Counted from the stretch's first letter, positions 30,326 through 59,460 are shown. The stretch: DNA of 64,000 nt from Acidobacteriota bacterium (GCA_012517875.1 JAAYUB010000017.1:84943-148942), one strand, 5' to 3'. The notes: generated by a model from the sequence alone, not told the origin. Numbers and translations: made by a program.

Positions 30326-30814
30326 TCAGTGATTGTGGCCGCGGGTACCTGCCTCGCCAAAGTAGGCCTTGCGGAACTCTGCCAGCAGTTCGCGCAGTCG
30401 GGCCACGCGGCTCAGGTCCGTGGTCTGCTTGGCCTGCATCGCCACGATGAGCATTTCGTGCAGCAGGGTCAACTGCCGGAGGTACCGGGCATGCGCCTCG
30501 GCATTTGTCGCATCCGCCGGCTTGATCCGCTGGGTGAGGAAATACTGGGCGACGGTTTCCTGGATGTAGCTGGCGTGCGTCTCCTTGTTCGTGACCCACC
30601 GCACCAGCTGGTTGTAGTTCTTCTCTCCCTGCACCGAAAGCTGGACGATCTGCTGCATGGATTTCTCCACGGTGTCAATGTCCTCGGCAATCGCCTGGAC
30701 GCGCAGCTCATCGCCGTAGATGCCGCACGGGATTTCGCAGTGGGCGCGGAGCGCCGGTGACAACACCGACAGCGCAGCCAACATGGCGAGCAGGAGTGTG
30801 GCTTTTTTCATCAT
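30326..30814 (-). CDS. sodN: nickel superoxide dismutase precursor (NiSOD) with Sec-type signal peptide
   Basis: 162 aa from ATG 30814 (AAGGAGG, 5-nt spacer). Leader MMKKATLLLAMLAALSVLSPALRA is followed immediately by the Ni-hook HCEIPCGIYGD (HCxxPCGxY). TGA stop. Confidence 0.85.
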   Translation of the reverse strand: MMKKATLLLAMLAALSVLSPALRAHCEIPCGIYGDELRVQAIAEDIDTVEKSMQQIVQLSVQGEKNYNQLVRWVTNKETHASYIQETVAQYFLTQRIKPADATNAEAHARYLRQLTLLHEMLIVAMQAKQTTDLSRVARLRELLAEFRKAYFGEAGTRGHNH

Positions 30815-30959
30815 CTGATCCTCCTTGCCGGGACGCATTGGCGCCCGGTTCACGGACAACAGATTCAGTCCGGTTCGGATGGATTCAGACTACCGCCGCA
30901 CCCGGCCATTCGGTTCACAACGTCCGGCGGGTAAGCATGCGGTGCGGCGGGCGATTCAG

Positions 30960-32348
30960 TCACCGGTGATAGCGGGAGATGAACTCCTCCACCTCGGGGA
31001 TCCCGCCCTGGAAGACGAGGTAGCCGTTGCAGGGCTCGCGTTCGGTGATCTCGCCGGCGATGGGCGTGTACATGATCCGCCGAACTTCCGCCAGGTCGCT
31101 CGTCTGCCCCAGCGCCCAGCCCAGTTTCACGTAGGCCACCTCGGGGAGCATGTTGGCCATGGGCACGACGCCCAGCTCCATCATGTCGCGCCCCGTGTCG
31201 TAGACGTACATCTGGACATAGCCCCACAGCGTCTGCACGGTCATATAGACGGCGATCTGCTTCTCCTTTGCCCGCTTCAGGGCCGGGTAGAGCGGTTTGT
31301 TGACGTGGCCGAGCCCGGTGCCGGCGATGATGATGCCCCGGTAGCCGTTGTCGATGAGAGAGTCGATGATGTCCGGCCGCATGTTGGGATAGTAGTAGAC
31401 GATGGACACCATCTCTTCGAACGCCGTGTTGATGGTCACGTTCCGGTCTCGCCGGCGCGGCTTGTAGTCGGGGCGTAGCGGAGTGATCGTCTCCCTGCTG
31501 ACCATGGCCAGCGGGATGTCGCCGATGGTGCGGAACGTGGACCGGTAGCTGGAGTGCATCTTGCGCACGCGCGTCCCCCGATGGAGCAGGCCGTACTCGT
31601 CGGAGGTGGGCCCGAACATGCAGACCATCACTTCCGCCAGGTCGCCTTCGGCGGCGGCCTTGACGCTGTGCATCAGGTTCAACGCCGCATCGGACGACGG
31701 CCGGTCGCTGGAGCGTTGCGACCCCACCATGACGATGGGCACTGGCGAGTCCTGGACCATGAACGAGAGGATGGCGGCGGTATGGTGCATCGTGTCGGTA
31801 CCGTGGCCGATGACGATGCCCTGGACCCCCTTGGCGATCTCGCGGCCGATTGCCTCAGCGGTGCCCCGCCACTGCTCCGGCCCCATGTTCTCGCTGAACA
31901 CGCCGTAGAGTTTTTCGGTTTCCAGGTTGCAGATGTCGGCCAGCTCGGGTACCGATCCGTAGAGCTCGCCGGGTGAAAACGCCGGGATGACGGCGCCGGT
32001 GCGGTAGTCCAGCCGGCTGGCGATGGTGCCGCCGGTGCCCAGGAGCTTGACCCGGGGTTTCTTCGGATCGAAGGGGAAATCTTTCTCGGGAATCTTGTAG
32101 TGGGCTTCCTTGCGGCCGGCGATGACGATGTTCGAAATGCCGGCGGCGGCGATGCCCACGTTGTACCCGTTGCGGAGCTTGAGCACAACATGGTAAGAGT
32201 CCGCGGTCTCCGAACGGGGCAAGATGATGCCGGTGAAGACGCCCTGCGGGGTGTGGACCTCGACGTCGCTCCAAACCATGGCGTTGAAATTCTTCAGCGC
32301 GGCCAGGGCTTCGCCGCGGTAACCCTTGTAGCTGTCGTCAGCGCTCAT
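30960..32348 (-). CDS. gatD: Glu-tRNA(Gln) amidotransferase subunit D (archaeal-type GatD; N-terminal GatD domain + L-asparaginase-fold domain)
   Basis: 462 aa from ATG 32348. The N-terminal domain has …VVLKLRNGYNVGIAA…. Asparaginase motif KLLGTGGTIAS. It overlaps the gatE 3' end by 11 nt. Confidence 0.8.
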   Translation of the reverse strand: MSADDSYKGYRGEALAALKNFNAMVWSDVEVHTPQGVFTGIILPRSETADSYHVVLKLRNGYNVGIAAAGISNIVIAGRKEAHYKIPEKDFPFDPKKPRVKLLGTGGTIASRLDYRTGAVIPAFSPGELYGSVPELADICNLETEKLYGVFSENMGPEQWRGTAEAIGREIAKGVQGIVIGHGTDTMHHTAAILSFMVQDSPVPIVMVGSQRSSDRPSSDAALNLMHSVKAAAEGDLAEVMVCMFGPTSDEYGLLHRGTRVRKMHSSYRSTFRTIGDIPLAMVSRETITPLRPDYKPRRRDRNVTINTAFEEMVSIVYYYPNMRPDIIDSLIDNGYRGIIIAGTGLGHVNKPLYPALKRAKEKQIAVYMTVQTLWGYVQMYVYDTGRDMMELGVVPMANMLPEVAYVKLGWALGQTSDLAEVRRIMYTPIAGEITEREPCNGYLVFQGGIPEVEEFISRYHR

Positions 32349-34320
32349 GGATGTCCTCCTGCAGCCGGGTCGCGAGGCGCACGGCCACCCCGGCGCCAGG
32401 CACACGTCCGTCCAGCTCCCGCATCACCAGTGCCATGGCCGTCCGGAACCGCTGCCCCGGGGTGGGGACGGCCAGTTCCTTGACGCGGGCCAGGCCGCGG
32501 GTGATCGCCGTCTCCACGCCGTCCGCTGGCAGCGGCGGCGGCAACTGCTCGGGTTCAAATCGTCCGGCTTCGGCCGCTCGGGCGAGGGCGGGCAGAATCC
32601 CTTCGCGGGCCAGCCGACCGCCGCGGTGCGCCGCCAGGATTCCTTCGAAATCGGCGGTCGTCAGCTGCGCCGTCGAGAGGCGTTTTCGTTTGAGCCGCTT
32701 GGGCAGTTGGACGAGGGCCACGGCAACCAGGACCGGCGGCAGCCCCCACTCCCGGACAACCTTTTCGAACAGCTCCCACTGGGGCGAGATGACCAGGGGC
32801 CGCACTACGTCTTCAGGCACCCCCTGCGTCCGGCACCACGCTTCGCGCGTCCAGTAGTATGCCGGCAGGTTCCGGCGAATCCGCTCCAGCCGCTCGCCGG
32901 CGATGCGCTTGGGGGGCAGGTCAGTGTCCGGGTACATGCGGTCGGGGCCAGGCAGGATCCGCTCGAAACCGTTGGTCCCGTCCCGGAGGGCTTGCCGGGT
33001 TTCCGACGGGATGCCTACCGTGGCCTCGCGCGCCCGGATGGCGATCTCCCGGGCGCCCGTCTCGACATCGGTGGGCGGGCCCCACACCACGACGACGGCG
33101 TCGTTGTCACCGGCGCCAGTGGCCTTCTTGATCTCATGCCATTCGGCGGCCGCCAGGGTCTCGCTCTGGCTGTCGCTGTGCACGATGTTGGGCAGCGTGG
33201 TCAGGCATGCGATCACCCGCACGCGGTCGGAGATCTCCCGGGAGAACGCGGTGTCGGTCTGGGTGGGCCAGCGCAGCAGGTCGCGGAAACCCACCAGGTT
33301 CACACCGAACACCACCTTCCCTTCGGCGATGGCTGTCCGGATGGGCTGGAAGCGCGTTTTGCGGAGGCTGCGGGTCACCTCCGTTGTCCGAGAAGCGAAG
33401 GAGGCCGGGGTCACGCCCCGCCGCCGCAGCTCGGCCCGCAGCCGCAACAGGCTCCACTGGCGCATGGCTTCGTGATAGGTCAGCAGCGGGATGTTGGGAA
33501 TGCGCGGCACGCCCTTGATCTCGATCCGCGTGCCGCCGGTGACGCTGACGTTTACATCCTGCCGGGCGGCGCCGATCCCCGTGCGCACCCAGCCGGTGCT
33601 GCGCACCAGCCGGCGGCAGATCTCGCCCACCTGGGCCACTTCGTGGGGCGTGCGCATGTCCGGACCGGTGACCGTCTCGATGAGGGGCATGCCCAGCCGG
33701 TCGGTCAGGTACACCCGTCGGTGGCCGATGTCGCTCACCTCCCGACAGGCGTCCTCTTCGAGTCCGAGCTGGACGATCCGCACCTCCCGGTCCTTGAACG
33801 GGATCCGGCCGTTGACGCCGACGATGGTCGTCCGCTGGAATCCGGTGGGGATGCTGCCGTCAAGGTACTGCTTGCGGGCGATGTGGATCTCGTCCACCAT
33901 GGAACACCGGTACAGCATAGCGATGCCCAGGGCGATATCGAGCGCGTCCTCGTTGAGCTCGAAGGGCGGCGTGTCGTCGATCTCGTAAGTGCAGACCGTG
34001 TCGCGGTTGATCCGATAGATGATCTCCTTGTGGGTCTTGAACTCCATCAGGGCGGTGCCGTCGTACTCACCGAGCTCGGACAGCGTCGGACGCATGTGCC
34101 GGAGGACTTCGGCGTGGTAGTGGTCGCTGTATCTGCCCGCGGGGCACCGACAAAAAAGTTTCTTGTCCGTGAGGAGCTGCTGGTGGATCTCGAGACCGGA
34201 CCGGAATCCGATGCGGTGGTAGTCCGCGTCGGTCATTTCGGCAAACGGCTTGAATTCGAAATCGAGGAGTGCCTGGAGATCGGGTGCGGCGGAAGGCGGA
34301 TCAGCGGGGGTCATACTCAT
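32338..34320 (-). CDS. gatE: Glu-tRNA(Gln) amidotransferase subunit E (archaeal-type GatE; GatB/E N-domain with AspRS-like insertion + YqeY-like tail)
   Basis: ~660 aa. …RIGFRSGLEIHQQLLTDKKLFCRCP… and …RKQYLDGSIPTGFQRT… are GatE-like rather than the GatB YFYPDLPKGYQIS. The size fits GatE (~630 aa) rather than GatB (~480 aa). The start is ambiguous: ATG 34320 (GGGAGA RBS), 34386 or 34236. Confidence 0.75.
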   Translation of the reverse strand: MSMTPADPPSAAPDLQALLDFEFKPFAEMTDADYHRIGFRSGLEIHQQLLTDKKLFCRCPAGRYSDHYHAEVLRHMRPTLSELGEYDGTALMEFKTHKEIIYRINRDTVCTYEIDDTPPFELNEDALDIALGIAMLYRCSMVDEIHIARKQYLDGSIPTGFQRTTIVGVNGRIPFKDREVRIVQLGLEEDACREVSDIGHRRVYLTDRLGMPLIETVTGPDMRTPHEVAQVGEICRRLVRSTGWVRTGIGAARQDVNVSVTGGTRIEIKGVPRIPNIPLLTYHEAMRQWSLLRLRAELRRRGVTPASFASRTTEVTRSLRKTRFQPIRTAIAEGKVVFGVNLVGFRDLLRWPTQTDTAFSREISDRVRVIACLTTLPNIVHSDSQSETLAAAEWHEIKKATGAGDNDAVVVVWGPPTDVETGAREIAIRAREATVGIPSETRQALRDGTNGFERILPGPDRMYPDTDLPPKRIAGERLERIRRNLPAYYWTREAWCRTQGVPEDVVRPLVISPQWELFEKVVREWGLPPVLVAVALVQLPKRLKRKRLSTAQLTTADFEGILAAHRGGRLAREGILPALARAAEAGRFEPEQLPPPLPADGVETAITRGLARVKELAVPTPGQRFRTAMALVMRELDGRVPGAGVAVRLATRLQEDIHER

Positions 34321-34421
34321 GACCGTATCTCCCTGGTTGGAATCCGGAAACGTATGGGGCAGGCCGAGCCGTGCATACTCCGCCATGATAGCGATGATGA
34401 TAGGATGAGGCAATAATTTTC

Positions 34422-34450
34422 AAAAAAACCGCCGGGGACAACCCCGGCGG
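34422..34450 (-). terminator. intrinsic terminator (minus strand) after hcp
   Basis: ccgccgggg-acaa-ccccggcgg hairpin with an A-run on the + strand at 34422-34428, which is a T-run on the minus strand. It lies 60 nt after the hcp stop. Confidence 0.75.
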
Positions 34451-34512
34451 TAACATCCGGACGCCCGTACCCGCTCAGACGGGCCGGGACCGCTTGTACC
34501 TGTGTTTGAGCG

Positions 34513-36177
34513 TCAGGCCGTCGGCGCCGTGCCCAAAATCGCAGCCAGGTCTTCTTCCACCGACCCGATGGGACGGATGGCGAATTTGTCCACCAGCACC
34601 TGGAGGACGGCCGGCGTCACGAAGGCGGGCAGAGTCGGCCCCAGGCGGATGTTGCGGATGCCCAGGTACAGCAGCGACAGCAGGATCACCACGGCTTTCT
34701 GCTCGTACCAGGACAGGATCAGGGACAGCGGCAACCCGTTCACGTCGGTCTTGAAAGCCGCCGCCAGTGCACCGGCGATCTTGACCGCGGAGAACGCGTC
34801 GTTGCACTGGCCCACGTCGAGCAGGCGCGGGATGCCGCCGATGTCCCCGAACGCCAGCTTGTTGAAGCGGTACTTGCCGCAGGCCAGGGTTAGGATCATG
34901 CAATCCTTGGGCACCGCCTGGGCGAACTGGGTGTAGTAGTTCCGCCCGGATTTGGCGCCGTCGCACCCGCCGATGAGGAAGAAGTGCCGGATGGCGCCCT
35001 TCTGGACGGCTTCGATCACCTTGTCCGCCACGCCGAGCACGGCGTTGTGGCCGAAGCCCACCCAAATGGTGTCAGCGGGACCGTCCGCCGCAAAACCGGG
35101 CGCCGCCTGGGCCGCCGCGATCACCGGCGCGAAGTTCCGGTCGGCGATATGAGTCACCCCCGGCCAGGCCACCAGGCCCGTGGTGAACATCCGGTTGAAG
35201 TAGGTTTCCTTCGGTTTTTGGATGCAGTTGGTGGTCATCAGGATGGCGCCCGGAAAGGCGTCGAATTCCTGCCGCTGGTCCTGCCAGGCGCCGCCGTAAT
35301 TGCCGGCCAGGTGCGGGTACTTTTTCAAACCGGGGTAGGCCAGCGCCGGCAGCATCTCCCCGTGGGTGTACACGCGGATCCCCGTCCCCGCGGTTTGCTG
35401 CAGCAGAGCATCCAGATCCTTGAGGTCGTGGCCCGACACCAGAATGGCCTTGCCCTTGAGCGGGTGGATGCGCACCCGGGTGGGTTCAGGATGCCCGTAC
35501 GCGCCGGTGTTGGCGGCGTCCAGCAGCTCCATGACCCGAATGTTGACTTCACCGACCCGCAGCGCGAGCGCCAACAGCTCATCGGCCTTCAGGTCCGGCC
35601 TGGTCAGCGTGTCGAGCGCCTCGTGGAAGAAGGCATACACCGCCTCGTCTTCCTGGCCCAAGATCTGGGCATGATCGGCGTAAGCCGCCATGCCTTTCAG
35701 CCCGTAGGTGATGAGCTCTTCCAGCCCCACCAGGTCCCGGCTGCGGGCGTTCAATCGACGCTGGATGCCGATCTGTTCCCCCTGCTGAAGCATGTCGCCG
35801 CGGCTGGCGGCGGGGACCAGGCTGGACGGATCGCCCAGACTCTCGGGGGTCCGGCCGGCCCGCCGGCTGGCGGCCATGTACGCGTCGCGGGCCTGATCCC
35901 GCAATCCGGCGACTTTCCGGATCATGGCCTCCAGCCTGGCCGGATCGAAGTTGACGTTGGTCACGGTGGTGAACAACGCCTCGATGACCGCCAAATCGTA
36001 CTGGCGGTCACGAACTCCAAGCAGCCGGAGCCGGTGAGCGTACATGGCCAGTCCTTTACTGAAGCAAAACAGCAAGTCCTGCAGGGAGGCGGTCTCCGCA
36101 TCCTTGCCGCAGACGCCGGCCTTGGTGCAACCGCTGCCCTGGGCCGTCTGTTCACACTGATAACAAAACATACTCAT
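34513..36177 (-). CDS. hcp: hydroxylamine reductase / hybrid-cluster protein
   Basis: 554 aa from ATG 36177 (GGAGG, 5-nt spacer). The start MSMFCYQCEQTAQGSGCTKAGVCGK is canonical for Hcp. TGA stop. Confidence 0.93.
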   Translation of the reverse strand: MSMFCYQCEQTAQGSGCTKAGVCGKDAETASLQDLLFCFSKGLAMYAHRLRLLGVRDRQYDLAVIEALFTTVTNVNFDPARLEAMIRKVAGLRDQARDAYMAASRRAGRTPESLGDPSSLVPAASRGDMLQQGEQIGIQRRLNARSRDLVGLEELITYGLKGMAAYADHAQILGQEDEAVYAFFHEALDTLTRPDLKADELLALALRVGEVNIRVMELLDAANTGAYGHPEPTRVRIHPLKGKAILVSGHDLKDLDALLQQTAGTGIRVYTHGEMLPALAYPGLKKYPHLAGNYGGAWQDQRQEFDAFPGAILMTTNCIQKPKETYFNRMFTTGLVAWPGVTHIADRNFAPVIAAAQAAPGFAADGPADTIWVGFGHNAVLGVADKVIEAVQKGAIRHFFLIGGCDGAKSGRNYYTQFAQAVPKDCMILTLACGKYRFNKLAFGDIGGIPRLLDVGQCNDAFSAVKIAGALAAAFKTDVNGLPLSLILSWYEQKAVVILLSLLYLGIRNIRLGPTLPAFVTPAVLQVLVDKFAIRPIGSVEEDLAAILGTAPTA

Positions 36178-36238
36178 ATTTGCCTCCGCTCTGGTAATGT
36201 CTCGCTTCCTGGACACATTTTAGATGCTCCATGGCGCA

Positions 36239-42480: not shown

Positions 42481-42599
42481 GCCGAAGCCGCATCCCGCGT
42501 CATCCGCATTGGATAGAAGTTGAAAAAACATCCATCTCAAGATAGCATGGCCTGTTGGGCCGGTCTTCCGCCCGCGCCCCGGCGCCGAAGGAGTCGATC

Positions 42600-43607
42600 G
42601 TGTCATCCAAACAAACCACCGTCAGTCGTGTCGTCGCGTGCGATGACTCGCCTTCTGCCGTCTGCCCGCCACTGGCGGCCGTGCTGCTGATCGTGCTCAT
42701 CGCCGCGGGACTCGGACCGGCCTGTTCCGTGAAAAAAATGGCAGTGAACCGCCTCGGTGACGCGCTGGCCGGCGGCGGTGAAACATTCGCCGCCGACGAG
42801 GATCCTGAACTGGTGAAAGCGGCGGTGCCCTTCAGCCTGAAGCTCATCGAAAGCCTGCTGGCTGAAAGCCCCCGTCACAAAGGCCTGCTCCTGGCGGCCG
42901 CTAGTGGATTCACCCAATATGCCTATGCGTTTGTCCAGCAGGATGCCGATGAACTCGAGGATGCCGACTTCGCCGCCGCCACCGCCATGCGTCTGCGGGC
43001 GAGGAAACTCTACCTGCGGGCGCGCACTTACGGTCTACGCGGATTCGACGCAGCCCATCCCGGCTTCTCCGATGCCCTTCGGCGCGACCCGAAAGCCGCG
43101 ATCCAGCAGGCCCGCGCCGCCGACGTGCCCCTGCTGTATTGGACCGGCGCCGCTTGGGCCGCCGCCATATCGCTGGGCAAGGACGACCCGGACCTGGTGG
43201 CCGACCTGCCCATCGTCTAGGCGATGATGGACCGGGCGCTGGCATTGGATCCAGATTTCGGGGGAGGCAGTTTGCAAGCGTTCATGATCACCTTCGCCAT
43301 GGGCCGCGCCGCCAGCGGGCGGAATCCTGAGGCCGAAGCCCGGCAGCACTTTGAGCGCGCACGGCGGCTGTCCGACGGCCAACAGGCCGGACCGTTTGTC
43401 TCGCTGGCCGAAGCGGTCAGTGTGCAGACGCAGAACCTGACCGAATTCCGGTCCCTGCTGGAGCAGGCGCTGGCGGTTGATGTCGACGCCCGGCCCGAGT
43501 GGCGGCTGGCCAACCTGGTCGCGCAACGCCGTGCCCGCTGGCTGCTGGCCCGCGCCGACGACCTGTTCCTGACGGCAGATTCCGACGAGGAGACGGAGCA
43601 TGAGTAG
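42600..43607 (+). pseudogene. tatT: TRAP-transporter T-component (TatT family, TPR-like) interrupted by a single in-frame TAG at 43218-43220
   Basis: ORFs 42555-43220 and 43224-43607 are in the same frame and together give a ~335-aa TatT-like protein (…DLPIV*AMMDRALALDPDF…). The probable start is GTG 42600 (AAGGAG RBS). tatT-dctP-dctQM synteny supports the call. Confidence 0.6.
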
Positions 43608-53004: not shown

Positions 53005-56000
53005 ATGAACTATATCCGCGGCGCGATCTCCCGACCCGTCACCGTGTCCATGTTCGTGGTGGCGGTGATCCTGTTCGGGATCGTCTCGCTCGACCGTTTG
53101 GCGCTCAATCTGTTGCCCGACATCTCCTACCCGTCCCTGACCATCGACACCGCCTACACCGACGCAGCGCCGGAGGAGATCGAGAGCCTGATCACGCAGC
53201 CGGTCGAGGAGGCCGTCGGCGTGGTCTCCGGCCTCACCCGGATCAGTTCGGTCTCACGACCGGGGCAGTCCGAGGTGGTGCTGGAATTCAACTGGGACAC
53301 CGATATGGACCTGGCGGTGCTGGACGTGCGGGAGAAGCTCGACTTCGTGGAACTGCCCCGTGACGCAGAAAAATCCGTGATCCTCCGCTTCGATCCGTCC
53401 CGTGATCCCGTCATGCGCGTCCGGCTGCAGGGGCTGTCCGACCTGCGTATGCTCCGGTTTTTCGCTGAAAAGGAGTTGAAGAAGAACCTGGAAGCGATGG
53501 ACGGCGTGGCCGCGATCAAGGTGGTGGGCGGCCTCGAGGAAGAGGTCCAGATCAATATCGACGAGAAGAAGCTTGCCGAACTGGACATCCCCATCACCCA
53601 GGTCACGGACATCCTCCAGCGCGAGAACCTGAACATGGCCTCCGGCTCCCTGTACGACCAGGAATCGAGCTACATGGTCCGCACCCTGAACGAATTCAAG
53701 TCGCTCGAAGAAATGCGCCGGATCATCATCCGCGACGAGGGGGGACGGCAGGTGCGCTTGGAAGACATCGCTCAGGTGGTCCGCGGCGCCAAGGACCGCG
53801 AGGTGATCGCCCGGCTCAACGGGCGCGAGAGCGTCGAGGTGGCGATCTACAAGGAAGGCGACGCCAACACCGTCACCGTCTCCCGTGCCGTGACCCGCCG
53901 GCTGGCCTCGTTGCAGGAAGCCAAGATCATCCCGGCCGACGTGAGCTATGCCATCGTCGCCGATCAGGCGGACTTCATCGAGCAGGCCATCGGCGAAGTG
54001 CGCAGCAACGCCTGGATGGGCGGGCTGCTGGCGACCATCATCCTGTTCCTGTTCCTCAAGGACGTGCGCAGCACGTTGATGATCGGGCTGTCCATCCCCA
54101 TTTCCATCATGGCCACGTTCGCCCTGATGTACCAAACCGATCTGACGCTGAACATCATGTCACTGGGCGGTATCGCCCTGGGGATCGGTATGCTGGTGGA
54201 CAACTCCATCGTCGTGCTCGAAGCCATCGACCGGCACAAGCGGTCAGGGCTGGAACTGGCCGAAGCAGTGTACCGGGGCACGACAGAGGTCAGCATGGCC
54301 GTCACGGCGTCTACGCTGACCACGGTGGCGGTGTTCCTGCCGCTGGTCTTCGTGGAAGGAATCGCCGGCCAGCTCTTCACGGACCAGGCGCTGACCATCA
54401 CCTATTCGTTGCTGGCGTCGCTTGTGGTGGCCCTGACTGTGCTGCCCATGCTCATGGCGGTGCGCTTCCGCCGGGCAGAAGAGCTGTACGGCGCCGACCC
54501 CACGACGGAGACAGTGACCGCCACTGCGGAGCGGCTGCTAAGCAAGCGGCGCTGGCTCCGTCCTTTCCAGCAGCTGGAACGTTGGATCGTCCGCGGGATA
54601 CGGGCTTTGTTCCGCTTCATCTTCGGTGCCATCTTCCAGGTGGTCCTGGCCGACATACGCCGCATCATCGGCTGGATCGGCCGGCTGCTCGGCCGGGCCA
54701 TCCGGCCCGTGCTGGGGTCCTTTGACCGGGTGTTCCTCTCGCTGCAGCGAGCCTACCCGAACTGGCTGCGGCTGGCGTTGGACCACAAGGTCGTGGTGAT
54801 CGGGCTGACGCTCGTCGTCACGCTGGCCGCCGCCGGGCTCTACACCACGCTCGGCACCGAGCTGATTCCACCCCTGACCCAGGGCGAGTTCACCTTTGAA
54901 ATCCAGCTGCCGGAAGGAACATCCATCGAACACACGGACCGGCTCATGCAGGATGTCGAGGGCCGGATCAAACAATATCCGGAAGTGGCCACCGTTTTTT
55001 CCAGCATCGGCGGCTCCAACGAAAACCAGTTCGCCCGCCAGGTCCGCAAAGAAAACACCGCCGCCGTCTACCTCGTGATGAAAGACCGCTTGGACAAGGC
55101 CGCCGAAGCGCGGTGCATCGACCGGGTTCGCGGCGAGTTGGACACCCTGCCCGAGGTCTCCTACAAGTTCAGCCGACCGGCCCATTTCACCTTCAAGCGG
55201 CCGATCGAGGTGGAGGTCGTGACCTACGACCTGGAGCAATTGAAGACGCTTTCCCAGCGCACCGAGGGCATCCTGGCGAGAATCAACGGACTCGACGACA
55301 TCAAGACCACCGCCGAGATGGGCAATCCGGAAATTCACGTGATCTTCGACCGGGAGCGACTGGCTCGGCTCGGCCTGGACGAGAACCAGGTGGCCCGCGT
55401 CATCCGGAACAAGATCCGCGGCGACGTGGCCACTCGTTTCAAGGAGCAGGACAAGCAGATCGACATCATGGTGCGCGCGAACGAGTCCGACCGCACCACC
55501 GTGGCCCAGGTGAAGGAGCTCGTCATCAACTCCGCCGCTGCAGCCGATGCTCCAGCTCCGGCGGGGCTCGGTGTTCCGGTGAAGCTGGGCGCAGTGGCCG
55601 AGGTCGTCATGGCCCGCGGACCAAACGAGATCCACCACATCAAGTCGTCCCGGGCCGCGGTGCTTTCGGCCAATTTGTCGGGCCGTGACCTCGGGAGCGT
55701 TTCGGCAGAAATCAACCGGGAACTGCGCCGCCTGGCGCCGGAGCTCCCCGCCAACGCGACGGTCGCCCTGAGCGGTCAGAACGAGGAGCTCCAGACCGCC
55801 TATCGCAGCCTGCTGTTCGCCCTAGGGCTGGCCGCGTTCCTGGTCTACCTGGTCATGGCCGCCCAGTTCGAGTCGCTGGTCCATCCGTTCATCATCATGT
55901 TCACTGTGCCGCTCGGCGCAGTGGGCGCCGTTCTGGGTTTGGCCTTCACCGCCACCCCGGTCAGCGTGATGGTGTTCATCGGGATCATCATCCTGGTGGG

Positions 56001-56364
56001 CATCGTCGTAAACAATGCCATCGTACTGGTGGATTACGCGAACCAGCTCCGCGCCGAGGGTTTGTCAAAGCGGGAAGCGCTGGTGGCTGCGGGGCAGGTC
56101 CGCCTCCGGCCCATTTTGATGACGACGCTGACCACGATGCTGGGGCTGCTCCCCATGTCACTCGGCCTCGGTGAGGGCGCCGAGATCCGGGCCCCCATGG
56201 CCATCACCGTCATGAGCGGCCTGATGTTTTCGACGCTGCTCACCCTGATCGTGATCCCGGTGGTCTACGAGGCCGTGGATCGGCGGGTCACCGCCGCCGA
56301 CCAGGCGACCGCCGCGGCGAAGCCCGAACCGCTGACCGGGCTCCGGCCATCCGCCTGCGAGTGA
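53005..56364 (+). CDS. RND efflux permease (HAE1/AcrB-MdtB-like), with ~100-aa cytoplasmic insertion after TM6
   Basis: 1119 aa. ATG 53005 (RBS CAGGAGG). The N-terminus MNYIRGAISRPVTVSMFVVAVILFGIVSL is AcrB-like. 12 predicted TM segments. Confidence 0.92.
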   Translation: MNYIRGAISRPVTVSMFVVAVILFGIVSLDRLALNLLPDISYPSLTIDTAYTDAAPEEIESLITQPVEEAVGVVSGLTRISSVSRPGQSEVVLEFNWDTDMDLAVLDVREKLDFVELPRDAEKSVILRFDPSRDPVMRVRLQGLSDLRMLRFFAEKELKKNLEAMDGVAAIKVVGGLEEEVQINIDEKKLAELDIPITQVTDILQRENLNMASGSLYDQESSYMVRTLNEFKSLEEMRRIIIRDEGGRQVRLEDIAQVVRGAKDREVIARLNGRESVEVAIYKEGDANTVTVSRAVTRRLASLQEAKIIPADVSYAIVADQADFIEQAIGEVRSNAWMGGLLATIILFLFLKDVRSTLMIGLSIPISIMATFALMYQTDLTLNIMSLGGIALGIGMLVDNSIVVLEAIDRHKRSGLELAEAVYRGTTEVSMAVTASTLTTVAVFLPLVFVEGIAGQLFTDQALTITYSLLASLVVALTVLPMLMAVRFRRAEELYGADPTTETVTATAERLLSKRRWLRPFQQLERWIVRGIRALFRFIFGAIFQVVLADIRRIIGWIGRLLGRAIRPVLGSFDRVFLSLQRAYPNWLRLALDHKVVVIGLTLVVTLAAAGLYTTLGTELIPPLTQGEFTFEIQLPEGTSIEHTDRLMQDVEGRIKQYPEVATVFSSIGGSNENQFARQVRKENTAAVYLVMKDRLDKAAEARCIDRVRGELDTLPEVSYKFSRPAHFTFKRPIEVEVVTYDLEQLKTLSQRTEGILARINGLDDIKTTAEMGNPEIHVIFDRERLARLGLDENQVARVIRNKIRGDVATRFKEQDKQIDIMVRANESDRTTVAQVKELVINSAAAADAPAPAGLGVPVKLGAVAEVVMARGPNEIHHIKSSRAAVLSANLSGRDLGSVSAEINRELRRLAPELPANATVALSGQNEELQTAYRSLLFALGLAAFLVYLVMAAQFESLVHPFIIMFTVPLGAVGAVLGLAFTATPVSVMVFIGIIILVGIVVNNAIVLVDYANQLRAEGLSKREALVAAGQVRLRPILMTTLTTMLGLLPMSLGLGEGAEIRAPMAITVMSGLMFSTLLTLIVIPVVYEAVDRRVTAADQATAAAKPEPLTGLRPSACE

Positions 56365-56373
56365 GGTGCAGCC

Positions 56374-59300
56374 ATGAACCTGTCCGACTTCTCCATCAAG
56401 TCGCCTGTGACGGTCTGCATGTTCATGCTCTGCTTCCTCGTGCTCGGCGGCATCTCCGTCATCAAGATACCCATGATCCTGCTCCCCGAGATCGATTTCC
56501 CCCAGGTGGAGGTCTTCGTCCCCTATCCCAACGCGTCACCGGAACAGGTGGAGCGGAGCATCACCAAGCCCCTTGAGGAAGCCCTGGCCACGGTGGCGCA
56601 CCTCAAGACGATGAACGCCACCTCCCAGTCCGATGGCAGCTACATCAACCTTGAGTTCGACTGGGGCCTGGACATCGACGTGATTCGTGCCGAGATCCGC
56701 GAGAAAGTGGAGCAGGCCCGCGTCGACCTGCCCGACGATGTGGACGACATCTTCGTCCGCAACTTCCGCTCCAGCGACATTCCCATCATCGAGGGGCGCA
56801 TCTCGTCGGGGCGCGATCTGCGCGGCAGCTACGACTTTCTCAAACACAAGATCAAGAAACCCCTGGAGCGGATCCAGGGCGTCGCCGATGTCGAGATCGG
56901 CGGAGTGTCCAAGCGGGAGATTTCGATCTATCTCCGCATGGCCGACATCAAGAAGTACCGCGTCGACGTGGGCCGGCTGTTCCGCCGGCTGGACAGCGCC
57001 AACCTCAATGTCTCCCTGGGCCGGGTGCGCGACGGGGTCCACCGCTTCGGCGTGCTGGCCCAGAACGCCCTGGCTGACCTCGAGACCATCCGCAACTTCC
57101 CGGTCGATGACCGCGGCCTGCTGCTCCGCGATGTCGCCGACATCGATTATTCCGAGCCCCTGCTCGACTACGGCCGCCACCTCAACGGCGACTACGCCAT
57201 CGCCGTCACGATTCTCAAGGCGTCCGACGCCAACATCGTCGAGACCGTCCGGGCGATCCGCGCGAAGATCGACGAGATCAACCAGGATCCCGCCCTTGAG
57301 GGGATCCAGCTCCTGATCTGGCACGACTCTGCCGAAGAGATCACCAAGGCGCTCAACGGCCTGTTGGAGTCGGGCTTCTACGGCTCGCTCCTCGCTGTCG
57401 GCATCCTGTTCCTGTTCCTGCGCCGGATCGGCGCCACCCTGGTGGTGGGCTTCGCCATCCCGTTCTCCATCATCTCCGCCGTGGGCATCCTCTACCTGTC
57501 GGGTGGGACGCTCAACGTGCTGTCCATGATGGGGCTGATGCTTTCCGCCGGCATGCTGGTGGACAACGCCGTCGTGGCCCTGGAATCGATCTTCCGCCAC
57601 ATCGAGAAAAGCAAGACCCGGCTGGAGGCGGCCCGGATGGGCACCCGGGAAGTGGTCATGGCGGTCGTGGCCTCGACGCTGACCTCGATCATCATCTTCG
57701 TCCCCCTCATTTTCGGCCGGAAGAGCGAGTTCTCCACCTGTTTGTCGGAGGTGGGCATCTCCATCATCATCGCCCTGTGCTGTTAGCTGTTCGTCTCGCT
57801 GGCTTTCATCCCGCTCGCCATGGCCCGCTTCATCAGGATCCGTCCGCCCAAGGTTGAATCCACCCGGACCGCGCTGGCATGGGGTTACGGCCGCGCCCTC
57901 GACTGGACCATGCGCCACCGCGTCCTCACGACCCTGAGCATTCTGGCGATCATCGTGCTGGCGACCGTTCCCTTCCAGATGCTGCCGGACAACACGCCCG
58001 AAGCCAAGGAGATGCGTGACCTGCGGATCCAGTACGAGTTCACCGAAAACTACCACTATGCCGTCATCGAGCAGACCTACGTCAATCCGGTCGAGGCCTA
58101 CCTGTTTCACAACAAGGCACGCTGGAAGATCAAGGACGTGTACAGCTTCTACAACAACGGCAGCGCCTCCACCCAGGTTTACTTCGACCAGGCCCGCCTG
58201 GTGGCCGGCGAAGCCTCCAAGATCCGCGATCAGATCGGTGAGAAACTGCCGGTCATCCCGGGCGCCCGGATCAGCCTGGGGCGGATGCGCGGCGTGGACA
58301 CCGCCAACTGGGTGGGCGTGAATCTCTACGGCGACGACACCCAGACGCTCAACGAGCTGGTTCTGGAGGCCAAACGCCGGTTCCGCGCCAATCCGACAGT
58401 CAAGGAAGTGCACACCGCCCAAGAGCGCGGTCTGGAGGAAGTGCAGATCCGGCTTGACCGCGAGCGCGCGGGCAAGTATGGGATCAGCGCCCAGGCCGTC
58501 GGTCAGGTGCTGGGCATCGTGCTCCGCGGGCGCGAGATCCGGGGCTTCCACTCCAGCGATGGCGAGGTGGAGATCTGGGTCAAGCTGCAGGAGGAGGACC
58601 GCGAGAACATCGAGGACCTCAAGAGCGTGATCGTGGGCGGCGGTGCCGACGGCGGAGACATTCTCCTGTCGCACGTGGCCGATTTCGAGATCGTCAAGAC
58701 CGCCCAGTCCATCGAGCGGGAGGACCGCCGCACCCGCGCCTACATCGGGGTGGTCTGCGGCCTGGAAAACCGCGACGAGAGCCGCCGGCTGGTCACCGAC
58801 ATCATGAACAGCATGCCGCTGCCCATGGGTTACACCTGGAGCTTCGACCGCTGGGTGGCGGAGCAGGATGAGGGCAACCAGGAATTCATCTTCAACATGC
58901 TGCTGGCCCTGTTCATGGTCTACTTCGTCATGGCCTCGTTGTTCGAGAGCCTGGCCCATCCGTTCGCCATCATGTTCTCGCTGCCGTTCGCGTTCGTCGG
59001 CGTGGCGGTCTTCCTGTGGATCACCCACACCCCCTTCAACTTCATGGCCCAGATCGGCCTGCTCATTCTCATCGGCGTTGTGGTGAACAACGGCATCGTC
59101 CTCATCGACCACGTGAACAACTATCGGCGCGCCGGCTTGCCCCGCGCCCAGGCGATCCGGGAGGGATGCCTGGAGCGGCTCCGCCCCATCCTGATGACCG
59201 CCGGCACCACCGTGGTGGGCCTGCTGCCGCTGGCATTCGGCACCACCAGCATCTTCAACGACCGGTACTTTCCCATGGCCCGGACGGTGATGGGCGGGCT

Positions 59301-59460
59301 CATCGCGTCCACCATCCTGACCCTGCTTGTGCTGCCCACCGTCTACTCGCTCATCGACGACTTCGCCCTGAGCGCGCGCCGCATGTGGATTCGGACCCGT
59401 CCCACCGCCGCAGCGCCGGCTGTGCCGCCGGCCGCGCCAGCCTCCGAACGGGCGGTCTGA
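56374..59460 (+). pseudogene. second RND efflux permease (MdtC-like) interrupted by a single in-frame TAG at 57784-57786 within TM6
   Basis: ORFs 56374-57786 and 57820-59460 are in the same frame. Reading through gives 1028 aa, a typical AcrB length: …ISIIIALCC*LFVSLAFIPLAMARFIRIRPP…. Confidence 0.65.

Follow-up and report, generated by a model that had tools for sequence, protein, structure and literature searches.

The present analysis deals with a window of 64,000 nucleotides from an Acidobacteriota bacterium (GCA_012517875.1, JAAYUB010000017.1:84943-148942), that is, the whole stretch of DNA that was analysed, and with two of its genes, gatE and gatD, predicted to encode the subunits of the tRNA-dependent amidotransferase GatDE. 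Our main finding is that these genes probably constitute an operon with coupled translation, encoding a working GatDE that is native to its bacterial host and belongs to a monophyletic bacterial clade, most likely derived from one transfer from an Asgard-like archaeon; to this reading we give a probability of roughly 75%. Reviews published from 2008 to 2022 describe GatDE as an archaeal signature protein found only in archaea (PMC2330236, PMC2811023, PMC8007984, PMC9499178), a restriction that does not hold, since the window and 76 species genomes carrying gatE are bacterial. An earlier note on this DNA, made from the sequence alone, had described two overlapping minus-strand genes at 30960-34320, and both open reading frames (ORFs) lie exactly there:

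32338-34320, minus strand: gatE, 660 amino acids (aa), tRNA-dependent kinase/amidotransferase subunit E
30960-32348, minus strand: gatD, 462 aa, glutaminase/asparaginase-type subunit D with GatD N-domain

The motifs quoted in that note (GLEIHQQL...KLFCRC, LDGSIPTGFQRT, LKLRNGYNVGIA and TGGTIAS) are all present in the translations.

The gatE product passed the cut-offs of two GatE equivalog hidden Markov models (HMMs), NF003107 (508 bits, cut-off 456, model positions 2-628 of 630 aligned) and TIGR00134 (426 bits, cut-off 320), whereas the GatB models, TIGR00133 included, gave only 102-116 bits against cut-offs of 315-338 (best 116, cut-off 338). These scores uphold the earlier description of a protein of about 660 aa from the GatB/E family with GatE motifs. 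Its length compares with about 480 aa for GatB, from which its loop and tail also differ. In a comparison with PDB sequences, the GatE chains of Pyrococcus abyssi (1zq1_C) and Methanothermobacter thermautotrophicus (2d6f_C) reached 315 and 289 bits, respectively, and GatB at most 79 bits. A model predicted by AlphaFold2 (AF2; predicted local distance difference test, pLDDT, 80; predicted template modelling score, pTM, 0.79) retrieved 1zq1_C and the 2d6f chains as top Foldseek matches (E 1e-32 to 1e-29), with 1zq1_C at 1.6e-32 (TMt 0.72), 2d6f_D at 5.4e-31 and the best GatB at 1.1e-17. The catalytic residues are intact: the Mg2+ ligands H46, E188 and E215 correspond in the alignment to His15, Glu157 and Glu184 of M. 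thermautotrophicus GatE, residues at which mutation inactivates that enzyme (PMC2330236), and they are kept in 96-98% of the 64 sequences of the bacterial clan described below. Two regions of the protein deserve separate mention:

33076-33408, minus strand: AspRS-like (GAD) insertion domain of GatE, approximate, residues ~305-415, not in GatB
32341-32523, minus strand: putative YqeY-like C-terminal tail of GatE, approximate, residues ~600-660, with a diverged D-loop-recognition motif

An inserted AspRS-like region had already been proposed for this protein, and several results bear it out. The Pfam GatB_N match spends 435 residues on 271 profile positions, which leaves an insertion of about 160 aa; the region aligns with the insertions of P. 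abyssi and M. thermautotrophicus GatE (1zq1_C, 2d6f_C); 26 of 62 close homologues have a match to PF02938 (GAD); and the predicted model has local Foldseek matches to the AspRS insertion domain. The tail is modelled as a helical bundle with pLDDT above 90 and is covered by the NF003107 alignment.

The gatD product was assigned with similar scores, 512 bits with NF003217 (cut-off 310) and 508 bits with TIGR02153 (cut-off 324), and shows the Pfam architecture PF18195 GatD_N, PF00710 Asparaginase and PF17763 Asparaginase_C. The GatD_N match and both GatD equivalogs agree with the earlier claim of an N-domain fused to an asparaginase fold with the motif TGGTIAS. Among PDB sequences, the GatD chains 1zq1_A and 2d6f_A scored 394 and 392 bits, and asparaginases at most 142 bits. 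The active-site motifs TGGTIAS (residue 105), HGTDT (182) and RKMH (262) align with their equivalents in both structures, and the mechanism described for this type of enzyme is that of asparaginases, with a Thr nucleophile and a Thr-Asp-Lys set (PMC2330236). The model of the type I L-asparaginase subfamily, TIGR00519, was also matched by GatD (383 bits, below both GatD equivalogs) because GatD contains the asparaginase fold; a free-standing type I L-asparaginase, however, has about 330 aa and the asparaginase domains only, whereas this protein carries the additional GatD_N domain. Taken together, the equivalog HMMs, the comparison with PDB sequences and the predicted fold support both proteins as true GatE and GatD orthologues.

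By analogy with the reaction scheme of the archaeal enzyme (PMC2330236), the substrate would be Glu-tRNAGln. A glutamyl-tRNA synthetase of the non-discriminating kind would charge tRNAGln with Glu; GatE would bind the resulting Glu-tRNAGln and phosphorylate its gamma-carboxyl group using ATP/Mg2+; GatD would hydrolyse Gln or Asn by means of the asparaginase-type Thr nucleophile and the Thr-Asp-Lys set; and the ammonia would pass through an internal tunnel to GatE, where the intermediate would be converted to Gln-tRNAGln. The complex is presumably alpha2-beta2, as in archaeal GatDE.

With the archaeal enzymes of M. thermautotrophicus (2D6F) and P. abyssi (1ZQ1), the window proteins share the two subunits and the domain architecture: in GatE, a cradle domain that contains the AspRS-like insertion, followed by a helical domain and, less certainly, a tail of the YqeY type; in GatD, the N-domain and asparaginase fold; and, as regards catalysis, the Thr nucleophile with Thr-Asp-Lys and the Mg2+ ligands of GatE. 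They differ in sequence (about 35-40% identity for GatE and 51-55% for GatD), in the bacterial host, in the overlapping gatE-gatD operon, in the loop VRTGxGAA in place of VKRGLGTI, and in a GatD with some 25 additional N-terminal residues, a trait it has in common with Heimdallarchaeota. The closest archaeal relatives in both subunit trees are the Asgard GatDE (Heimdallarchaeota TET29438.1, clusters P0178/P0291; Thor- and Odinarchaeota, P0200 and P0238). Their GatE is 41-42% identical to that of the window, their GatD is similar in length and N-terminus, and gatD and gatE are adjacent. Nevertheless, Asgard GatE retains the archaeal motifs VKRGIGTI and G..A.G.LMG, the Heimdallarchaeota context is archaeal (TFIIB zinc ribbon, S13-S4-S11), and on a Heimdallarchaeota contig (L084, 5939-9488) gatD and gatE are divergent, whereas the bacterial genes are co-directional with a stop/start overlap. 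Bacterial GatCAB, through which bacteria are expected to form Gln-tRNAGln and Asn-tRNAAsn (PMC2330236), has the overall reaction and the GatB/GatE cradle fold in common with GatDE, but its GatB lacks the AspRS-like insertion and has a 3-10 turn (KMEEG) and a Lys-rich tail motif, unlike the window GatE, and its glutaminase is the amidase-family GatA and not an asparaginase-type GatD.

The contig is bacterial and belongs to an Acidobacteriota lineage of metagenome-assembled genomes (MAGs) from anaerobic digesters. The window GatE is about 97% identical to proteins on Acidobacteriota MAG contigs from sludge digesters, and a 91%-identical GatE is encoded on a 5.0-Mb Acidobacteriota contig. Among about 40 window genes scanned with Pfam or NCBIfam are those for DnaK, a sigma54 activator, SLT-LysM, OmpA, a bacterial-type prepilin peptidase, nickel superoxide dismutase (Ni-SOD) and ArfB, together with tripartite ATP-independent periplasmic (TRAP) and resistance-nodulation-division (RND) systems, BlaI/BlaR1, PilZ and EAL; the sigma54 activator, SLT-LysM, BlaI/BlaR1, RND efflux and OmpA had been named in the earlier note as bacterial neighbours and were recovered. 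The same scan found no aminoacyl-tRNA synthetase, gatCAB or asnB.

The distribution of the system in bacteria is broad. When one genome per GTDB species was scanned, a GatE locus was found in at least 76 species genomes, all of them bacterial and from about 12 phyla; because the patterns used were specific to the window GatE, this count is a lower bound. The taxa comprise Acidobacteriota, Aminicenantes, Ignavibacteriota, Bacteroidota (including Lentimicrobiaceae), Calditrichota, Caldisericota, Gemmatimonadota, Eisenbacteria, Krumholzibacteriota, Fibrobacteraceae, Planctomycetota, Myxococcota (on a 5.18-Mb chromosome) and one MAG labelled Pseudomonadota. In most of the 76 loci gatD lies directly 3' of gatE, and in a few others without gatD the contig ends just past gatE. 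In all the Caldisericota loci (L057, L058, L060-L064) gatD was not found in the 0.8-10 kb, depending on the locus, downstream of gatE, nor was it found in the DNA downstream of gatE in an unclassified bacterium (L074); in these genomes it may lie elsewhere or be absent. Only gatE and gatD are conserved together across phyla, with no other neighbour shared, and the conserved-neighbour comparison yielded lineage-specific synteny within Aminicenantes only and no translation-related partner. In Aminicenantes this synteny includes a tRNA-Arg(CCT) gene whose spacing from gatE-gatD hardly varies, some 9.7 kb downstream of the start of gatE and in L029 as much as 11.9 kb (loci L015, L021, L023-L025, L028, L029, L034, L037, L039 and L072) as well as H+-PPase, a TonB-like receptor, FtsX, PadR and RecO.

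Between phyla, identity to the window proteins is 84-88% for GatD and 66-69% for GatE (loci L006-L078). Such a GatD identity is unusually high for proteins of different phyla; it suggests that anaerobic bacteria have recently exchanged the gene, and the patchy distribution likewise argues for gene flow among bacteria. At least 8000 protein relatives were scored, of which the best 120 are 65-91% identical to the window GatE and, where named, are GatE of Acidobacteriota, Aminicenantes, KSB1 or Bacteroidota MAGs. GenBank and IMG contain automatically annotated GatE proteins (for example HNR37685.1 and NLI45899.1) that share clade and operon with the window locus, are 65-97% identical to it and show no substantive difference, although they exist as database labels only. 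With near-identical proteins already carrying the GatE label in GenBank, this one locus is less novel than it would otherwise be, and it is a further member of a known enzyme family. We found no paper on bacterial GatDE in the open-access full-text literature.

The phylogenetic analyses suggest how bacteria may have come to possess this enzyme. A HMMER search of 1.84 billion cluster representatives returned 651 clusters at E <1e-30, with scores stepping down from bacterial-type sequences (42-59% identity) to archaeal ones (30-38%). In a neighbour-joining (NJ) tree, the window GatE and every taxon-labelled bacterial locus formed one clan of 64 sequences, recovered in 290 of 300 bootstraps and in 95-99% across analyses, within which identity falls to 44%. 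Two basal members of the clan were checked and have bacterial contexts (HU, ClpS and WaaA; Mur ligases, Lnt and RsmH). The closest archaeal GatE cluster is that of Heimdallarchaeota, on an archaeal contig that also carries gatD. When the tree was rooted with five GatB sequences from the PDB alignments, archaeal GatE was monophyletic in 0-12% of replicates with Poisson, Kimura or gamma distances, and in 74-86% the sister of the bacterial clan was a subset of six sequences: Heimdall, Thor and Odin representatives, one with PolB/TRAP-beta/STT3 neighbours (an Asgard-like context) and two without a taxon label. For GatD, an independent tree with two archaeal type I asparaginases as outgroup joined the bacterial and Heimdall proteins in 487 of 500 replicates, with archaea monophyletic in one of 500. 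The phylogeny that the earlier note had proposed thus places the bacterial clan beside Asgard proteins for both subunits. This grouping under GatB or asparaginase outgroups favours one ancient archaeon-to-bacterium transfer; therefore, the bacterial clade most likely goes back to a single ancient transfer out of an Asgard-like archaeon, followed by its spread among bacteria.

A candidate second acquisition by bacteria was rejected. The protein P0252 (L085, NPA86110.1), from a 188-kb contig deposited as 'MAG: bacterium', falls inside the archaeal clan, and the genes of its contig are archaeal (RNA polymerase subunit L, DUF2067, DUF2122), so that it does not represent an independent bacterial acquisition.

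Several observations weigh against a single transfer of a working GatDE to bacteria. Uncorrected p-distances put the GatE root between the two domains in 55 of 100 replicates; mean distances differ little (0.635 vs 0.651); the phylogeny was computed by NJ only; the GatD tree holds only three archaeal sequences; and all 76 genomes with GatE are MAGs. As regards the protein itself, Pfam GAD is not significant in the window GatE, and PF02637 (YqeY), present in 51 of 62 homologues, is undetected in it. The tail motif GXXAXGX, implicated in telling Glu-tRNAGln from Asp-tRNAAsn (PMC2330236, PMC2811023), is not conserved. Finally, archaeal GatDE recognises the A1-U72 pair and the D-loop of archaeal tRNAGln (PMC2330236, PMC9499178), whereas bacterial tRNAGln usually has U1-A72 (PMC2330236), so a change of specificity would be required.

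The p-distance root bears directly on the alternative that the enzyme is the same but its origin vertical, GatDE having been present in LUCA, the last universal common ancestor, as proposed by Sheppard and Soll (PMC9499178), and the bacterial clade being a relic sister to all archaeal GatDE. The depth and diversity of the monophyletic bacterial clan, with identities down to 44%, would also fit such a history. Nevertheless, with corrected distances archaeal GatE is seldom monophyletic and the sister of the bacteria is usually drawn from a small Asgard-led set, the GatD tree groups the bacteria with Heimdallarchaeota in nearly all replicates, the bacterial distribution is patchy, and the high inter-phylum GatD identity points to transfer within bacteria. 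We therefore regard a vertical origin as unlikely and retain the transfer from an Asgard-like donor.

As for tRNA recognition in the transferred enzyme, the GatE sequences contain two candidate sites of adaptation, the tail listed above and a loop located by alignment with archaeal GatE:

33556-33588, minus strand: GatE loop VRTGIGAARQD, residues 245-255

In the archaeal complex, a short positively charged GatE loop adjoins the 1:72 pair of the tRNA (PMC2811023). This loop reads V-K-R-G-[LI]-G-T-I-RQD in archaeal GatE, Asgards included, and V-R-[TR]-G-x-G-A-A-RQD throughout the bacterial clan; the tail reads G..A.G.LMG..M in archaea, P..[KR].R..MG..M in the bacterial clan and PGQRFRTAMALVM in the window. 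These differences suggest a retuning to bacterial tRNAGln, but they are correlations and no proof. A search for tRNAGln itself in the window and 80-odd further loci was negative, and the only tRNAs recovered were tRNA-Arg, Leu, Glu, SeC (selenocysteine), Thr and Val. A tblastn search with GatE revealed no second GatB/GatE paralogue in 1.3 Mb of flanks of GatDE-bearing genomes, a result that is uninformative with about 0.4 expected by chance. A survey from 2014 recorded gatCAB in each of the six cultured Acidobacteria it covered and the use of GlnRS alone in most Bacteroidetes (PMC3927822), so that GatDE could act as an additional amidotransferase dedicated to Glu, as in archaea, could have replaced another route or could be redundant.

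From these observations we put forward a more specific hypothesis, tentatively and as less likely than not: that an Asgard-derived GatDE switched tRNA identity from A1-U72 to U1-A72 by way of the VRTGxGAA loop and the altered tail, and that it may serve as a dedicated, possibly sole, Glu-tRNAGln amidotransferase in many anaerobic Acidobacteriota and bacteria of the Fibrobacteres-Chlorobi-Bacteroidetes (FCB) group. If this were true, GatDE and GatCAB would share the work in these hosts, as they do in archaea, or else GatDE would have taken the place of GatCAB or GlnRS, and the supposed co-evolutionary lock of GatDE with archaeal tRNAGln would be broken.

The same differences could instead mean that the bacterial pair, though descended from GatDE, has taken on another substrate or role: it might amidate Asp-tRNAAsn or a different aminoacyl-tRNA, or serve beside GatCAB as a back-up or specialised amidotransferase, and not be the way in which the cell obtains Gln-tRNAGln. 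The systematic departure of loop and tail from archaeal GatE at positions to which recognition roles have been assigned (PMC2811023, PMC2330236) is compatible with this, as are the patchy phyletic pattern and the redundancy that gatCAB in the six cultured Acidobacteria and GlnRS in most Bacteroidetes might create (PMC3927822). Yet the AspRS-like insertion, which in archaeal GatE was modelled to clash with AspRS (PMC2330236), is retained, the catalytic residues and the strong purifying selection fit the canonical reaction, and no neighbour hints at secondary metabolism, only gatE-gatD being conserved across phyla. A changed role thus appears rather improbable to us, and a canonical GatDE remains the preferred reading.

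With respect to its residence in the genome, the operon is native to this lineage and under purifying selection, and it is neither a recent island nor an assembly artefact. The order hcp-gatE-gatD-sodN-prepilin peptidase-histidine kinase recurs on the 5.0-Mb contig of the 91%-identical relative, and the synteny around gatE-gatD is kept in three related species. The G+C content at third codon positions (GC3) of the two genes, 0.86-0.89, is typical of the window, and in codon-usage distance from the pooled remaining genes the pair holds ranks 7 and 16 of 39. Against three orthologues, synonymous divergence (dS) is 0.19-0.34 and dN/dS (the ratio of non-synonymous to synonymous divergence) 0.03-0.14. 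Typical codon usage, kept synteny and low dN/dS together indicate that the operon is long-resident and selected. The comparison of composition that the earlier note had suggested accordingly finds gatE and gatD like their flanks, and of the two possibilities left by that note, horizontal acquisition or native use, the second holds at the depth of this lineage, while for the whole clade an old archaeal donor is most likely.

One might suspect that the operon was gained recently by horizontal transfer as an island, or that a piece of archaeal contig was wrongly assembled or binned with bacterial DNA, given that GatDE is archaeal by the textbook and that the related genomes are all MAGs. This is nonetheless very improbable, with the operon mid-way in 64 kb of bacterial genes, composition equal to that of the flanks, identical synteny in three related species including the 5.0-Mb contig, a closest archaeal GatE of only about 42% identity, and values of dS and dN/dS that indicate long residence in the lineage. 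Least credible of all, to the point of being negligible, is an ordinary bacterial GatB beside a free-standing type I asparaginase, a confusion that the paralogy of GatE and GatB and the asparaginase fold within GatD could invite, but which the HMM comparison proposed earlier excludes, the GatB models not exceeding 116 bits where 315 or more would be needed and the proteins being a 660-aa GatE with an insertion domain and a GatD with GatD_N that passes both GatD equivalogs.

That GatDE forms a large bacterial clade, under selection and spread over many phyla, contradicts the claim of an archaea-only distribution and bears on several arguments built on it. In the reviews, the co-evolution of GatDE with archaeal tRNAGln is the reason given for GlnRS not having made its way into archaea and for bacteria getting by with only GatCAB. 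Bacterial GatDE offers a natural experiment on three points: how the tRNA identity rules of an amidotransferase change, whether two amidotransferases can operate side by side in bacteria as they do in archaea, and whether the scenario of a LUCA origin for GatDE is correct. In practical terms, caution is needed when GatD or GatE serves as an archaeal marker in metagenome binning or contamination screens. The distribution of GatDE and its implications for tRNA-amidotransferase co-evolution appear under-appreciated.

Concerning the expression of the operon, the following signals were recognised:

34428-34451, minus strand: intrinsic terminator of the upstream hybrid-cluster-protein gene (10-bp stem with 9 G-C pairs, then a T run)
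34385-34423, minus strand: two overlapping sigma70-like promoter matches 5' of gatE, consensus match only
34328-34333, minus strand: Shine-Dalgarno-like GGGAGA of gatE, by direct sequence reading
32354-32359, minus strand: Shine-Dalgarno-like GGAGGA of gatD, within the 3' end of gatE, by direct sequence reading
32338-32348, minus strand: overlap of gatE stop and gatD start, 11 nt, ATGAGCGCTGA, by direct sequence reading

Both genes start with ATG, and the start of gatE agrees with that of a 660-aa homologue (P0001). The 11-nt overlap, an arrangement also present in the relatives L001-L005, implies translational coupling. The sigma70-like matches numbered three in the scanned region, with 0.6 expected from shuffles. 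Given the terminator of the upstream hcp gene and these promoter-like hexamers, gatE-gatD looks like a separate transcription unit. An Rfam scan of the window returned no matches.

Some minor observations concern the rest of the window. The operon is flanked by two genes whose products are both tied to oxidative or nitrosative stress:

30326-30859, minus strand: nickel superoxide dismutase
34513-36216, minus strand: hybrid-cluster protein

This flanking is kept in the three closest relatives and not in other phyla. Further away, three plus-strand genes were noted, two of which contain an in-frame TAG:

53005-56364, plus strand: intact RND permease, upstream of the next
56374-59460, plus strand: second RND permease, split into two same-frame ORFs by TAG at 57784-57786
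42555-43607, plus strand: TRAP transporter T-component (TAtT), broken by TAG at 43218-43220

A recoding of TAG was considered and rejected because TAG is the normal terminator of 11 of 41 window genes. In three related genomes the TAtT gene is intact, with GAG (Glu) in place of the TAG codon, and the copy in the window is probably a pseudogene or the product of a sequencing error.

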